Positions 3,001 to 36,000 of a DNA stretch of 37,884 nt are shown piece after piece. Position numbers: made by a program. Positions within the stretch are counted from its first letter, which is position 1, and every line of letters starts with the position of its first letter. Source of the stretch: a virus. The stretch is taken from UHGV virus genome UHGV-2203451; one strand, written 5' to 3'.

Positions 3001-6000
3001 CGAATGAATCCATCAAGGAACTGTTCATTATAACTTTTGGCTATCTGATAACATCCAACAGCATCAATGCGTTCGATTGTGAATTGCCAACTATCACCGC
3101 AGTTAAAATTCCATTTCCAGCCGTATTTCTGTGCGAATTCATCATATTCAACATTTGCAGGTTCAGAACAGAAAGATAAAAATCTAAATGTTGGTTTTGG
3201 CCTTAGATGGTTAAGCCCGGCACCTCTTGGGGTATATATGGCATTATCTCCATTCCCACCTTTTGTTTTAACTGTAAGGTGACTTAAACCAAATTCAATA
3301 TCATATTTTGTTGGCGCAGCAAAAACAAAGCCGTCTTTTGGTGATGTGGTATTGTCAAACACAATAACCGTTTCACCCTGCCCATCACCGCATATATTTA
3401 TGGGTGGTATATTAACAGGACCAGTCACATTGTATATTCCTTTTGGCACATATAGTTTTCCGCCCTCTCCGAGAGCATTCGCTGCAGCAATAAATGCTGG
3501 CGTATCATCGATAATATTATCCCCTTTCGCCCCAAAATCTTTAACATTATAAACGTCACGCATCTTATCCTGGAACGTTCTGTATACTGCCCCAGAACCA
3601 TACTGAATAAACCAACCAAAACCACCAACAACTCCGGCAATTGCAGCATCGACATAATTACGCATTGAGCGATTATTTACAGCGTCCTGCTCAAGTGATG
3701 GATCTGCAAGGTTAGAAATTCTGTTTTGCTTTGCATCGTAATATTTTGCAAGCAAAGATGGTTTCATCAATGCACGTCTGAACCACCCAAAACATTGCTG
3801 GATCAGCATCGTCAGGTAGTCAAAGGCATCTTCATGCACTTCGGGAAAAAACTTTCCCTGATTGCGAAGATCTGTCTCCTGTACTACATCAAGCACACGA
3901 TCTATCGTAATTCGCCATCCAGTAGCAAGCGGAGACGGAAGAACCACAGAACCGCCACTATAAGTGCCAGCTCCAGTTACTGTATAACCGGTATCCAGAA
4001 CCAATTCTGTTACGTTCCCGTTCAGGTCAGACACCTGAACAACCAGGTCGGATTTTTTGAAAATGCGGAAAGTATACGGAAACGATGTCGTAACTCCGTT
4101 ACCGGTGTATTCGTTGTGGTCAACTTCGGTTGAGACCGTCATGTTAAATCTCCAGATAGTCGCAGCACCCGTTGCGCCGCATATCTGGTTATTCTATTAC
4201 CTGGAAAACCACATATGGATAGAAAGGCTGTAAATACGAATAGATATTACCTTTCAGGTAATTTGCAAAACGTGCTGGATAGCAAACAAATTATTTGCTA
4301 CTGTATAAATATACAGTTATTGCATGGAGAAGATAAGATGCAGCAGTATCACTATCCACTGGAAGACGGATTTACCGAAAGGATTCACACGCCGGGAGGC
4401 GTCAGGTCACTGGTGGAGGGATCGCACTTGATGAAATTACTCCGGGATCTCGATAAGGATGGATTTAATGTCGATGGCCCACTTGCCGAACTGACTGCAC
4501 TGATTAACTACGTCACCAGCTCACAGATGTCTATGCAGGATCTGCAAACACATCTCGACTATTGTGCCGAACAATTACGAAAACAAACCCGGTAAATTTA
4601 AAGGCCGCAAGAGCGGCCATTAACAGTCGTAAAATTCCGGGTCCCACAAACTTGCATCGCGCGGCATGGATTCTAAATTTTTCAGCCGCAAAATTCTGTC
4701 ACACTCGACAAGAAGTTTTTGTTTTTGTTCGTCAATTTCTACTTTTTTGTGTGCTGGCTCATCCCAGTAATCCAGAAGAAACGCATGTCGCTCAGACGTT
4801 ACAAGATAAATCACATACACATCACTGGTTGGTATTTTTTTATGCTTGTTGGTGGTCTTGTCTTTCTTCCCGGATGCCCAGTTTTTCCAGCATTGTTCCG
4901 TACCGCTCTCACCAAACTTGTCAGTATAGTTTCCGATGTTTACGTGAACGTGGCGTATGTGATATTCCAGCATCTCTTTCGGTGGATCCCGAAACAGAGT
5001 GTCCTTTCCGAAATCCTTATGATGACCGTAGCGCCAGTGATCTATGAACGCGTTTTTGATAGGTATTAGCTCAGGGTCCTTCCCAAAAATTCCAGGGTGA
5101 ACCAACCCCTGGAATTTATTCAGCATCGTCGTAGAGCTCCTGAGCCATATCTTCGGCAGTGCGTGCAAACATCCTGCGCGAGATTGCATGAGATTTCTCG
5201 ACGGACATCTTTGGGACCTCATGCATAACATTTTTGGGAGTTGTGTAATAGCCTATTACAATTTTCACACCTGACTTATGATTAATATCAGCATAATATA
5301 CTTCTTGTTCAGACGTTTCACGACGAACATAATCTGCCAGTTTTCCACATTTAAATTCCCCTCCCTGATGTTTTAAAATCTCCTCAACTGCACTATTTTC
5401 AGTGAAATACCGAATAAGAAATTTCTGTCCAGACTCTTCAGCATGAGGTATAACAGTATTATTGGAAGCCCGAACAATGGCCTTACTCAATATTTCATGG
5501 TCTTTATTTTTTTCTGATTTCCTCAAATGCTGCATTACTGTAGCTCTCTTCGTGTTCACGGGCACCCCCAACTACCTCTAGGGTAAACATTCTATCGAAA
5601 GTATACGCATACTGGCAAAAAAATAGGCAGGTATTTTCTGAAATGGGATCAATCAAACCACATAGGGTTGAAATAACGTGAGTTATGCATTTATTATTAC
5701 CTTTGCGGTAAATTTACATCGCACTCCTCTTGTGCCATAGTAATCGGGCACTGGAAAAATCCAGTGCCGGGATTGGCGTCCCGGATTACTAAAAGGCGCA
5801 TTCACCGCGCAAGCGGTTTTTTTATGCGTATAGCACGGCCACATTCGTATTATGGTGGGCTGTGTGGGGGCACCGAAAGGTGCGCCGGGTCCTTTTAGCC
5901 GGTTACGCCAACCCTGCACAGTTCACCACCAACCGATTGGCGTCGGTAGTGGTGATTAACCAGACTAAAAGGTAACCACTATGACAGCTACAAAAAGCAC

Positions 6001-33000: not shown

Positions 33001-36000
33001 TACCTTTGAGGTACGAATAGATATGAAAAGACCGCCGGGTGGCGGTCTACAGAGGGTTGTGGCTGGATATCATGAGTAGAAGAAGTATGCCAGTTCTGCT
33101 TTTGAGCGCAGCCATTGTCTTGTTTTACAGGCTTTAAAAAGCCCATTCATCAATACTTTACCTGGCATTTTGCGCTTACCTGTTAAGTGAGTCTGGATAT
33201 AATGACTCGTCGTTCCGGCTTCCTGTGCGAAGGCTTCACGCTCATCCGGAGTAAGTGCAAGCCAGTGCTTTTTGAAATCGAAATGTCCGTTATCGCTCAT
33301 AGCTATTGCCTGATATTTATTTCAGATAATAAATATTCACCCATAAGGTAACAAAAATCAAGGATAGTTACCTATGGGGTGCATTTACCTGTTGGGTAAT
33401 ATTGCTTTAAATTGAATCATCTACTGATTCATATATGAGGCGATTTTCCAGAAAATGAAAAGTATCCAGGACGTCCGCAGGCAAAATCTCAACGACTTGA
33501 TCGACCGTGAATTCAATGGTGTTCAGACGCGGATGGCTGAAAAACTTGGAACTCAGGCAAATCTGGTAAACCGCTGGGCTCTTGGCAAGAAGGTTATCGG
33601 CGACCAGGTTGCGCGAAAAATTGAAGCTGCCGCCAATAAACCCCGTAACTGGCTTGATATCGATCGCTCGCTTTCTCAGGAAGGTTTTCAGCCTGTCGGC
33701 CCTAGCGACATTGGTCAGCTGGCGGCTCACAACCTGGAACGCTGGATGAGCGAAAGCCGCGACCTTTCAACGCAGGGAAAACTACACCGCGCATCCGGCG
33801 TCGCCCAGGTGACAATCAGCCGCCTGTTAAACAATGAGGTCAGCGTTTCCATTTCCACCCTGGAGAATGTTGCATCCGCATTCGGGCGTCACGGCTATGA
33901 ATTACTGATTCACCCGCACGACCCTGCGACCATCAACTATGATCGCTCGCGCTACGCATTGTTACCCGAAACCGAGAAAGCAAAGATCGAAAGTTACATT
34001 GAATTTGTCATCAACCAGAACGAAAAAAACAAACAATAAAATCATACTTTTCAGTAAGTAAGCCGCCTTCTGGCGGCTTTTTTATTGCCTATACTATTAC
34101 CTAATGGGTAATTTTTTTAACTCATATCTATTGACATCAAACCAAATACGCATAATTATTACCTCAACGGTAACAGACCGAGGTAACAAGTTATGCAGTG
34201 GAAAATCATCAACGGTTGGTACTGCGTTACTGCATGCGGATTCATGAGCTGGAAGTTCCGCACCTTACAGGAAGGCATTAAGTGGGCTTTCGTCAGCAAA
34301 GAAGCTCGCGATGTGGCCAACGATAACGAGATATGGGAGGGCTGATAATGAACGTTAATCAGCAGAAAAATCTTCAAAAAATCATGCTGGCATTCGACAA
34401 GGACTACAGCCTGTCAGAACAGCTATATGACCGACAAGTTGAACTGATTGAGAGTATCCGGCTTCATCAACTGGCATCAACTTTCGACGTTGTAACAGTT
34501 AAAGGCGTTCGCCAGGAAGTACTGGAGGCCGCTAAAGACAGCCCTGAGTTCGAAGAACTAATGGATGCCTACCGGCGCGAGGCAATGGCAATTATCGCCC
34601 GCTGGGATCTGGCTGATCAGATTGATGGGCAGAGGGACGCGGCATGAATCCGGGAATTTATTTCGATATCAGCAACGAGGACTACCACGCCGGTGACGGC
34701 GTGAGTAAGTCGCAGCTAGATATGGTGGCTAAGAACCCTGCCCTTCTGAAATGGGTGAAGGCTGCTCCGGAAGACGAAGAGAAGAAGTCTGCACTGGACA
34801 TGGGTACTGCTCTGCACTGTCTGCTTCTGGAACCTGGAGAGTTTGACAAACGCTTCATCGTTTCACCGAAATTCGATCGTCGGACAAAACAAGGTAAAGC
34901 TGACGAAGAGGCATTTCTTCGTGATGTAGCGGATATGGGGATTACGGTACTTGATGCCGAGCAGTGGCGGAAACTGGAGCTGATGCGTGATAGCGCAATG
35001 GCTCACCCGGCGGCACGCTGGATGCTGGAAGCACCTGGTTACTGCGAAGCATCAATGTACTGGAACGATGAAGAGACTGGTGAGTTGTGCCGCATTCGTC
35101 CAGACAAATGGCTGAACGAGCACAACGTGATCGTCGACGTGAAAAAGGTTGCAGATATGGACCGTTTTGCACGCCACATCGAGGAATTCCGCTACCACGT
35201 GCAGGACGCAATGTACCGCGAAGGCGCAATGAGGGTTACTGGTCAGCCGCATGGTTTTTTCTTTCTTGCCGTGAGCGAAAGCATTGATTGTGGTCGGTAT
35301 CCGGTACGCGTGTTCGAGCTGGATGCGCCGGATGTCGATGCCGGTCACGATCTGTTCCGCCGGGATCTGAATACCTATCACGAATGCCGCATCAACGATG
35401 AGTGGGGCGGAGTGGAAATTATTAAACGCCCTGACTGGGCACGTAAACAGGATATGTACGTATGAGCAATGATATCGCAATCACATCACAACCAGGCGCA
35501 ACTGTAGGTACTGCTGCGGCAATCTTCAGCCCGGAGGGCATGAATCAACTGGTGCGTTTCGCGGAGTTGATGTCACAAAGCAAAGCGACTGTACCGGAAC
35601 ATCTTGAAGGCAAACCTGCCGATTGTCTGGCGGTGACCATGCAGGCGGCACAGTGGGGAATGAACCCTTTCGCCGTGGCGCAGAAAACGCATGTGGTAAA
35701 CGGAAAGTTAGGCTACGAAGCACAGTTGGTAAACGCGGTCGTATCCTCTTCCAGCCTGCTAGCGACACGCCTGAATTATCGCTGGAGCGGTGACTGGTCG
35801 AATGTTAACGGCAAAACAGATAAATCACCGAATCTGACGGTAACTGTGTCAGCAGTTCTTAAAGGAGAAGCAGAACCCCGTGAGCTTACCATCAGTATGG
35901 CGCAAGCCGGAGTGCGTAACTCTCCATTGTGGGAACAGGATCCGCGCCAGCAGCTTGCCTATCTTTGCACGAAACGATGGGCTCGCCTGCACGCTCCTGA

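Follow-up and report, generated by a model that had tools for sequence, protein, structure and literature searches.

An antirepression switch made up of the repressor Rep, the antirepressor Ant and LexA was reportedly described in the Salmonella phages SPC32H and SPN1S by Kim and Ryu in 2013 and by Kim et al. in 2016 (PDB 5D50 and 5D4Z). Salmonella phage epsilon15, the type member of the genus Uetakevirus, possesses seven perfect copies of the palindrome ATTACC-N5-GGTAAT. Exactly these seven are entered in its GenBank record (AY150271.2) as 'protein_bind' features, with the label 'repressor' and the note 'lysogeny'. They are located before terS, before gp3/portal, between gp19 and the tailspike gene, beside the repressor gene (three sites) and past the replication gene. 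The similarity of the epsilon15 repressor to PDB 5D50, i.e. the SPC32H repressor, is mentioned in the same record. The window considered here, i.e. the whole stretch of 37,884 nucleotides of the virus genome UHGV-2203451, belongs to a phiV10/epsilon15-like temperate podovirus of the same genus. It carries the identical palindrome at the same junctions (terS, portal, ant/tailspike, the operator cluster OL next to the repressor gene, and the post-replication junction) and encodes an orthologous repressor. Judged from the sequence, the palindromes of the window are very probably operators of its lysogeny repressor Rep (33455..34039) that head nearly every transcription unit, a reading to which a probability of roughly 0.87 can be given.

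The likeness to SPC32H and SPN1S includes homologues of both Rep and Ant (E values of 4e-42 and 4e-47), identically placed operators and a LexA box ahead of ant, all of which occur in the window; the window Rep is only 43% identical overall to that of SPC32H. All the features of the epsilon15/SPC32H Rep-Ant-LexA immunity system that can be looked for in a sequence are present, and in these terms the window system is a member of it. The epsilon15 record leaves unmarked the degenerate copies at OR (the cluster on the other side of rep), the second copy of each pair and the copy at the lysis cassette, and the operators are unmarked in the records of phiV10, SPC32H, SPN1S, Tyrion and BUCT554 and in the compared stretch of EC.W1-9. 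Relative to epsilon15, the window has additional copies at an IsrK/C4/Bro-N module and at the gene 6817..7449, and two OL sites versus three. Because the same sites are already annotated in epsilon15, the main finding is a rediscovery of a known phenomenon. A full-text literature search, aimed at the motif and at Uetakevirus operators, yielded no relevant result. The phasing of paired sites by 62 or 18 bp, the terminator-operator cassette, the population footprint and a second motif (O2), all detailed below, are refinements for which no annotation was found.

Rep is encoded on the plus strand (194 aa) and is a full-length homologue of SPC32H Rep, as its residues 1-190 align with PDB 5D50_A (E 4e-42). 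It is 100% identical to phiV10 p40 and 43% identical to the Rep proteins of SPC32H and epsilon15; the conservation lies mostly in the N-terminal domain, and NLVNRW is invariant in the alignment with Rep of epsilon15, SPC32H, Tyrion and BUCT554. The Pfam scan returned only helix-turn-helix (HTH) families, namely HTH_3 at residues 106-147 and a weak YdaS-like HTH at 21-61, and no peptidase S24 self-cleavage domain. The Rep of SPC32H is described as tetrameric, as binding palindromic DNA and as being dismantled by Ant, itself a tetramer (PMC9638917; PMC9986798). It comprises an N-terminal DNA-binding HTH, a middle dimerisation domain that is HTH-like and a C-terminal tetramerisation domain of the looping-linked type (PMC9986798). 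The earlier note, which was drawn up from the sequence alone, describes the window protein as a two-HTH repressor; according to the latter paper only the N-terminal HTH binds DNA, the second HTH-like domain being a dimerisation module. In the close relative vB_EcoP_ZX5, overexpression of the repressor decreases holin and endolysin mRNA by 99.97-99.99% (PMC9782041). The structural mechanism of repression by Rep 'has not been extensively characterized' according to a paper from 2023 (PMC9986798).

The other partners of the switch are found where expected from these relatives. Ant, the small antirepressor that would inactivate Rep, is encoded at 4338..4595 (+) and matches PDB 5D50_E (E 4.1e-47). 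Just upstream of ant lies a LexA (SOS) box, TACTGTATAAATATACAGTT (4299..4318), which differs at a single position from TACTGTAT-N4-ATACAGTA, a match expected 0.07 times by chance; its CTGTAT..ATACAG arms are invariant in five phages. A small Cro-like HTH protein (33070..33300, -) is encoded divergently from rep and matches phrog_35, 'transcriptional repressor' (E 5.6e-13).

Allowing up to two mismatches, ATTACCNNNNNGGTAAT (ATTACC-N5-GGTAAT) has 14 matches in the window versus 1.16 expected from dinucleotide shuffles; none of 100 such shuffles reached 14, the maximum being 4. Non-coding DNA, as delimited by a gene model corrected from relatives, makes up 8.4% of the window and holds 13 of the 14 matches (binomial P ~1e-13), and shuffling the intergenic DNA alone (mononucleotide shuffle) gives 0.17 matches against 12 observed. 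Full sites do not occur at a similar density in coding or shuffled sequence, an outcome that would have told against the regulon proposed in the earlier note. These statistics rest on dinucleotide and mononucleotide shuffles, a neighbour-preserving shuffle (mean 1.61) having been set aside because it was poorly mixed. Nine of the 12 intergenic gaps of at least 100 nt contain sites. TTACC-N7-GGTAA forms the invariant core, positions 1 and 17 tolerate changes, and there is a preference for T at position 7 and for A/T at the centre.

The eleven strong copies that had been listed previously all have the sequence and position given for them, but two others had been overlooked, at 27230 (ATAACCACCGTGGTAAT, one mismatch, 18 bp from 27248) and at 5571 (ACTACCTCTAGGGTAAA, two mismatches). 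The degenerate copies proposed at 33336 and 33367 exist, but with three and four mismatches, and they count only by virtue of their position, which matches that of OR operators in relatives. Confinement to intergenic DNA holds for 13 of the 14 matches, the sole coding match (12002, two mismatches) lying inside a gene, as many as chance predicts; it hinges on two choices of start codon, those of terS (27231) and of the gene starting at 5535. Four gene starts in all were corrected from annotated relatives: terS at 27231, taken as in epsilon15 and EC.W1-9 instead of an upstream TTG, Ant (4338..4595), the 5116 gene (5535) and a Zn-ribbon-like gene (32719..32919). The assignment of sites to genes was right for both antirepressors (Ant at 4338 and Bro-N at 5981), the 6817 gene, the tRNA/portal gap, the P/DUF1064 junction, the cro/Zn-protein junction and terS.

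The number and position of the palindromes are conserved in related phages. SPC32H has 18 copies (1.01 expected), phiV10 15 (0.78 expected), epsilon15 18, Tyrion 16 and BUCT554 15. In each of these relatives, terS is preceded by two sites, a single site separates the moron/tRNA genes from the portal operon, ant and the tailspike gene have one or two between them, and a further one precedes the lysis cassette; OL comprises two or three and OR three, one or two lie past the cro terminator, and the replication genes are followed by two. In three prophages whose Rep is 54-59% identical to that of the window, one of them in Serratia, TTACC-N5-GGTAA is the commonest inverted repeat and occupies the same places. 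The positional conservation in related phages that the earlier note had proposed to look for therefore exists, both sequence and positions being kept in nine genomes, including the Serratia prophage. An operator-like sequence, ATTACC(C/T)TAAAGGTATA, is also conserved in the attP/integrase-upstream region of four relatives, outside the window (L002 26881, L004 26959, L005 26869 and L003 28567), where it overlaps the integrase binding site annotated in epsilon15.

Variation within populations was analysed for four intergenic regions using 80 IMG/VR contigs that encode an identical Rep (66-81 sequences per region including that of the window, and 20-54 haplotypes each). Only 7 of the 96 columns corresponding to palindrome arms are variable, compared with 25 of 40 for the spacers and 106 of 593 for the other columns (Fisher P 0.007 and 3e-9), and all seven variable arm columns correspond to position 1 or 17 or belong to the degenerate 32999 site. 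The distal operators 31053 and 34096 display about 30 and 17 variants of the N5 spacer, respectively, with unchanged arms and flanks that are hypervariable too; for 34096 the invariant arms and hypervariable spacer were seen in 78 contigs. Such a pattern of columns is the footprint left by a protein that recognises the half-sites and ignores the spacer. The proximal operators 34158 and 33384 are almost fixed, unlike the distal 31053 and 34096 (30991-31079 and 34088-34120 compared with L009-L088); the variability of the distal spacers and flanks could reflect neutral drift at a junction prone to recombination, an adjustment of affinity or mutagenesis of hairpin loops.

The same data bear on two readings that do not involve an operator. 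The palindromes had alternatively been proposed to act as hairpins, in RNA or single-stranded DNA, i.e. as translational or attenuation elements that could for example hide a Shine-Dalgarno sequence (SD) at 30991. Every copy can make a stem of 5-7 bp with a loop of 3-5 nt, and the palindrome at 30991 does hold the SD (GAGG) of the gene 30644..30988, as had been noticed, but no more than one or two copies involve an SD, and the stems have little stability (-3.3 to -5.8 kcal/mol, z -1.2 to -3.1). Among 110 distinct 17-mers from nine genomes, each arm change is one-sided and breaks a pair, with no compensated change at any of the six arm pairs, and the arm sequence itself is invariant, beyond what mere pairing ability would require. 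In addition, the distal copies at OL and P/DUF1064 lie between a terminator and a promoter, upstream of the -35, and would rarely be transcribed; no Rfam family was found at any palindrome site. Invariance of the arms without compensation fits the recognition of DNA by a protein, not an RNA hairpin, and a hairpin role is barely credible. It is also very improbable that the sites are boundary sequences for recombination between mosaic phages, devoid of any regulatory role. They do lie at junctions between gene modules, with surroundings that are hypervariable among otherwise similar prophages, but such a role leaves unexplained the strict dyad symmetry, the 62/18-bp phasing, the fixed position relative to the -10 and the clusters flanking rep, and recombination at the sites could be a side effect of conserved operators.

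The sites interpreted as Rep operators are arranged around rep as two clusters. On the right of the gene, an intrinsic terminator (34060..34079, +), annotated at the equivalent place in phiV10, is followed 17 nt further by the perfect distal OL operator ATTACCTAATGGGTAAT (34096..34112), then by the putative early-left promoter PL (TTGACA-17-AATTAT, 34131..34159, +; 10/12 consensus match), the -35 of which lies downstream of this operator, and by the proximal OL operator (34158..34174), which shares its first 2 nt with the end of the PL -10 and spans the expected start of transcription. The resemblance to O2 of AACCAAATACG, found in the PL spacer, is at chance level in the window, and this candidate was rejected. 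On the other side, OR includes the operator next to rep, TTTACCTGTTGGGTAAT (33384..33400), identical in 78 of 79 contigs, a degenerate middle operator (33367..33383; four mismatches, one good half-site) that corresponds to epsilon15 33357 and SPC32H 34406, and the operator next to cro (33336..33352; three mismatches), which fills the spacer between the -35 and -10 of the putative early-right promoter PR (TTGTTA-17-TATTAT, 33326..33354, -; 9/12 match). An operator with two mismatches (32999..33015) lies just past the intrinsic terminator that follows cro (33029..33048, -; annotated in phiV10), ahead of the gene of a 66-aa Zn-ribbon-like protein (32719..32919) and of the replication genes; its position is the same in epsilon15, SPC32H, phiV10 and Tyrion.

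The P/DUF1064 junction copies the OL cassette on the other strand, with a hairpin, an operator, 45 nt containing the block ATCTATTGA and a second operator in the same register. Its elements are a terminator-like hairpin, GCGCGATAGCGC, followed by T7, located after P (31081..31100, -; annotated in phiV10), a perfect distal operator (31053..31069), a PL-like promoter read from the sequence that shares the ATCTATTGA block (TTGATT-17-TTTAAT, 31006..31034, -) and a proximal operator (30991..31007) whose first 2 nt are also the last two of the -10. Close relatives all share the -35 and the spacer of this promoter unchanged, within a hypervariable background. Another promoter suggested by a scan around 31053 (TCGACA-16-TAAAAT) was rejected, both of its hexamers being hypervariable in the close relatives.

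Upstream of terS, an intrinsic terminator (27283..27300, -) precedes two adjacent operators, 27248..27264, which corresponds to the annotated epsilon15 site 12-27, and 27230..27246, 18 bp off, which overlaps the start codon of terS (27231). The operator 24037..24053 separates the portal operon (23741..23947, -) from the tRNA-Arg/moron genes (+) and corresponds to the annotated epsilon15 site 2931-2947; with respect to a conserved plus-strand TTGACA (24016-24021), a -10 (TACCTT) falls within this operator. A weak hybrid site with one perfect half-site (ATTACC AATTT AACCAC, 23975..23991) lies 62 bp from 24037, immediately ahead of the portal operon; it is invariant in five phages and kept in the Serratia prophage. 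The perfect operator between the tailspike gene (-) and ant (+), 4246..4262, corresponds to the annotated epsilon15 site 19895-19911; another weak hybrid site with one perfect half-site (4196..4212) overlaps a TAGAAT -10-like hexamer upstream of the tailspike gene.

The remaining operators are located in the left part of the window. The operator 6742..6758, ahead of the gene 6817..7449, begins at the last 2 nt of TTGGCG-18-TAATAT (6714-6743) and follows a hairpin (6685-6700). A weak operator (5571..5587, two mismatches) ahead of the gene 5116..5535 lies 1 nt past the -10 of TTGCCA-18-TAGAAT (5618-5589, -), the order being TAGAAT, then g, then operator. The operator 5696..5712 is associated with the promoter-like TTGAAA-18-TATTAT (5668-5697, +) and belongs to the module made up of a small RNA like the Hfq-binding IsrK (5748-5823, +; Rfam RF01394, 76.7 bits), a C4 antisense RNA (5848-5933, +; RF01695, 77.7 bits) and, downstream of both, a Bro-N antirepressor gene (5981..6676, E 2.3e-21). 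This module is a second antirepressor module, similar to immI of P1, downstream of the 5668-5712 promoter, and is absent from epsilon15 and SPC32H.

Taken as a whole, five junctions read as a terminator, one or several operators and the next unit, with terminators directly upstream of operators at 34060, 33048, 27300 and 31100. At PL, 5696, 6742 and 30991, the -10 ends with the AT that forms the first two bases of the operator. The genome thus resembles a succession of units that are insulated from one another and each started under the control of Rep, a picture in which the promoters are putative and correspond to matches to consensus sequences.

Several observations weigh against such a simple picture. 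The promoter scan as a whole is not enriched over shuffles, and no convincing sigma-70 -35 was found at the terS, 32999, portal and tailspike promoters; at these four junctions, the likely start is about 50-70 bp downstream of the strong operator, so that simple occlusion is not evident. A roadblock role or a dependence on an activator is possible there. It could be proposed that, at the junctions that look devoid of a promoter (terS 27230/27248 and post-cro 32999), the bound repressor stops read-through from the terminator without blocking initiation, like the 'stoperators' of mycobacteriophage L5. The terS and 32999 sites are indeed directly downstream of intrinsic terminators, no good -35/-10 pair was found at either, and 27230 overlaps the terS start codon. 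However, the equivalent adjacent pair of the related contig L091 (7641/7659) falls precisely within a TTGACA-17-AATTAT promoter, the sites, being symmetric, do not show the bias in orientation by which stoperators are defined, and other loci of the window clearly overlap promoter-like sites. A roadblock at these junctions seems unlikely, and control of initiation by Rep is the favoured explanation.

Neighbouring sites are regularly spaced. Among nine genomes, the distance from centre to centre is 62 bp, i.e. six helical turns, in 15 cases and 18 bp in eight. At OL and at the post-replication junction, the spacing is without exception 62 bp in the window, epsilon15, SPC32H, phiV10, Tyrion, BUCT554 and one prophage. 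In the window it separates 34096 from 34158 (OL), 31053 from 30991 (P/DUF1064) and 24037 from the hybrid site 23975 (portal); at the tailspike junction the hybrid site 4196-4212 lies 50 bp from 4246, compared with 62 bp at the portal. Considering this geometry and the published oligomeric state of Rep, a single tetramer can probably occupy both sites of a pair, with the intervening promoter wrapped or looped.

The earlier note attributed the sites to one DNA-binding protein, most likely that encoded by 33455..34039, controlling many dispersed promoters. This is the best-supported interpretation, considering the homology to 5D50_A, the same palindrome and junctions in relatives and the labels in the epsilon15 record; the choice of Rep as the binder comes from homology and literature. 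The opposition drawn in the same note to a classical single-locus switch is only partly justified: the sites are dispersed, but they include an OL/OR switch around rep, to which the dispersed sites add.

Some data are unfavourable to Rep as the binder. Its putative recognition helix varies (NLVNRW, NLVSRW, NLISRW) while the operator stays constant, so that no covariation between protein and site supports it: the IMG/VR contigs all encode an identical Rep, and the homologues that are 54-59% identical and carry NLVSRW or NLISRW keep the same palindrome. The Cro-like protein is as conserved as the DNA-binding domain of Rep, and conservation therefore does not separate the two as binders; moreover, the repressor-site features of epsilon15 may themselves be predictions. 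The Cro-like protein (33070..33300) could be the main binder, or could share the sites with Rep as Cro of lambda does with CI, turning the units down during lytic growth. It is a small HTH protein encoded divergently from rep with a match to phrog_35, it is better conserved (76-84%, with the stretch EAGTTSHYIQTHLTG invariant) than Rep among the phages that share the operator, and the layout of OR with three operators recalls the CI/Cro switch. However, it is Rep that the SPC32H literature holds responsible for repression and for binding to palindromes, the repressor is named in the epsilon15 record, and the Cro-like protein as sole binder would leave Rep without operators; such a role for it is quite improbable. 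It is possible that the Cro-like protein is a second binder, either of the palindrome or of AACCA-N4-TGGTT (see below), Rep remaining the preferred primary one.

From these elements, the following model can be drawn, in which binding by Rep, promoter activity, looping and simultaneous derepression are all extrapolated from sequence and from relatives. In the lysogen, Rep would occupy OR (33336-33400) and OL (34096 and 34158), the clusters that flank its own gene, as well as the single or paired operators that head the replication, post-replication, terS-terL, portal-to-tail, tailspike, tRNA/moron and both antirepressor units. The junctions would follow a common plan, a terminator and then a promoter with an operator at the -10 end and transcription start or in the spacer between -35 and -10. 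As the operator overlaps the promoter at most junctions, Rep would silence each unit directly by excluding RNA polymerase, without relying on a single early promoter and antitermination, and the tetramer would bridge sites 62 or 18 bp apart. Induction would not involve cleavage of Rep: DNA damage would strip LexA from the box before ant, Ant would then dismantle the Rep tetramer, and all units would be freed together.

A second motif accompanies the palindrome. The sequence AACCACATA occurs four times in the window, in each case on the plus strand and at 39-51 bp from an operator, and is half of a 14-bp palindrome, AACCA-N4-TGGTT, called here O2. The O2 consensus is approximately AACCATATATGGTT, with a core ACC-N6-GGT compared with ACC-N5-GGT for the Rep site. 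A perfect copy is found at 32981..32994, other copies at 4207-4220, 5656-5669 and 23986-23999, and a half copy at 31012-31020; elsewhere, copies occur at 2985, 24748 and 33749 of L002 and at 4022, 21435, 26452, 34215 and 35385 of L003. With up to one mismatch, the window and Tyrion have six matches each (1.2 expected in each), and the excess is not significant in epsilon15 (4 versus 1.3 expected, 3 of 100 shuffles reaching 4). With up to two mismatches, 46 of 199 matches in nine genomes lie within 70 bp of an operator, i.e. in 4.8% of the sequence. Their offsets are quantised: 19.5 bp at the post-cro and post-replication junctions and at OL in Tyrion and BUCT554, 40.5-43.5 bp at the tailspike and lysis junctions, and 52.5 bp at the portal. 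All the relatives examined have O2 at their portal, tailspike, lysis, post-cro and post-replication promoters. O2 is invariant at the portal, lysis and tailspike junctions despite diverged flanks, sits in the spacer or the -35 region of putative promoters, and is annotated in none of the phage records compared.

The candidate binders of O2 are the Cro-like protein, a phrog_536 protein (27350..27691), the middle HTH-like domain of Rep and a host factor; comparison with the generally known consensus sequences of IHF, CRP, DnaA, Fis and LexA revealed no convincing match. The gene 27350..27691 (-) is the last one before the terS terminator, the position of a late-gene regulator; its product matches phrog_536, 'transcriptional regulator' (E 8e-55), with no Pfam or PDB match. 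A role of O2 as a purely late-promoter activator site was considered and is unlikely, because O2 also occurs at early units (post-cro, post-replication, and OL in Tyrion and BUCT554). It can be suggested, tentatively and with some doubt, that every Rep-controlled promoter carries two different operators, the second being O2 at a fixed offset. If a second regulator does bind O2, each transcription unit would have its own copy of the lysis-lysogeny switch, which would not be confined to one locus, and the 62-bp phasing would define a looped promoter cassette with two regulators.

Long stretches of the window are 97-98% identical to the Escherichia phages phiV10, vB_EcoP_PAS61, phiv142-3 and EC.W1-9, and Enterobacter phage Tyrion is about 78-81% identical to it; these phages are likewise temperate podoviruses belonging to Uetakevirus. 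The minus strand is the main gene direction and encodes, in this order, the cro-like gene, the replication genes (DnaT-like, 31888..32703; P, 31106..31906), the DUF1064 gene, small genes, terS (26635..27231) and terL (25163..26638), the portal-to-tail operon and the tailspike (1560..4142), while the early-left operon (plus strand, from 34193) encodes RecE/RecT-like, AlpA-like and PerC-like proteins and an MT-A70 methylase. The DnaT-like gene contains three adjoining tandem arrays (32267-32406; 12 bp x 2.4, 24 bp x 2.6 with 100% identity, and 18 bp x 3.1), every 24-bp unit of which can form a hairpin; these arrays look like iterons of a replication origin located inside the initiator gene, as in lambda. 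The ORF 24381..24632 (-), annotated as a hypothetical protein in phiV10 and EC.W1-9, overlaps on the opposite strand a tRNA-Arg(UCU) (24375-24451, +) and is probably not a real gene.

The left end of the window is unusual. Positions 1-868 are foreign to phiV10-like genomes and contain the N-terminus of an integrase (Arm-DNA-bind_3, 32% identical to phiV10 Int) and a partial tRNA-like sequence, which in another E. coli strain belong to a P4-like element beside a P22-like prophage. The holin-endolysin-spanin (lysis) cassette that relatives carry here is not in the window. Within 488-3555, the gene of a CatB-related O-acetyltransferase (869..1540) and the portion of the tailspike gene encoding the C-terminus are 99% common to P22-like prophages of other E. 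coli strains and not to phiV10; this looks like a swapped receptor-binding and serotype-conversion module. The gap upstream of the acetyltransferase gene (340-868) lacks a Rep operator.

Dispersed operators are also known from more distant systems, with unrelated proteins and sites. The primary repressor C1 of P1 acts on operators scattered over the genome, one of which belongs to the immI operon (C4 RNA and ant); these operators are asymmetric 17-mers of unrelated sequence, and C1 is unrelated to Rep. The window shares with P1 an operator heading a C4-RNA/antirepressor module (5696), a purely functional analogy: judged against a description of the C1 consensus, its motif is symmetric and different in sequence, and Rep matches HTH_3 and 5D50, which places the window outside the C1 network. 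Both gp71 of L5, with its stoperators, and the repressor of Streptomyces phage phiC31, with its inverted repeats, act on many sites in short intergenic gaps and silence the whole genome in the lysogen. The L5 sites are asymmetric, biased in orientation and block elongation, whereas the sites of the window are dyad-symmetric, several overlap -10 or -35 matches, and the proteins are unrelated; they are thus not stoperators of the L5 type. In lambda, the operator clusters OL and OR flank the gene of CI, an oligomeric repressor that binds cooperatively, and a cro-like gene is divergent. The window has such clusters flanking rep and a divergent cro-like gene, but Rep lacks a match to the peptidase S24 involved in self-cleavage of the CI type and would be inactivated by an antirepressor, and its operators extend far beyond the immunity region. 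KorA of RP4 is described as one global repressor with symmetric operators at several promoters of one replicon (PMC2665229). The operators of P1 C1, L5 gp71, the phiC31 repressor and RP4 KorA work in a way similar to that proposed for the window.

The value of the operator map is mainly in annotation, as the records of relatives mostly leave the operators unmarked. It predicts which prophage genes would be silent in the lysogen and which would not, the acetyltransferase region (340-1540) being devoid of an operator, and the 62-bp phasing and O2 provide concrete, testable entry points into a mechanism of repression regarded in the literature as poorly characterised. More generally, the map would explain how the whole 39-kb prophage is kept silent under a repressor that is not cleavable, and how all its units can be released simultaneously by one small antirepressor under LexA control. 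The occurrence of one operator sequence across prophages of Escherichia, Salmonella, Enterobacter and Serratia suggests a broad cross-immunity.

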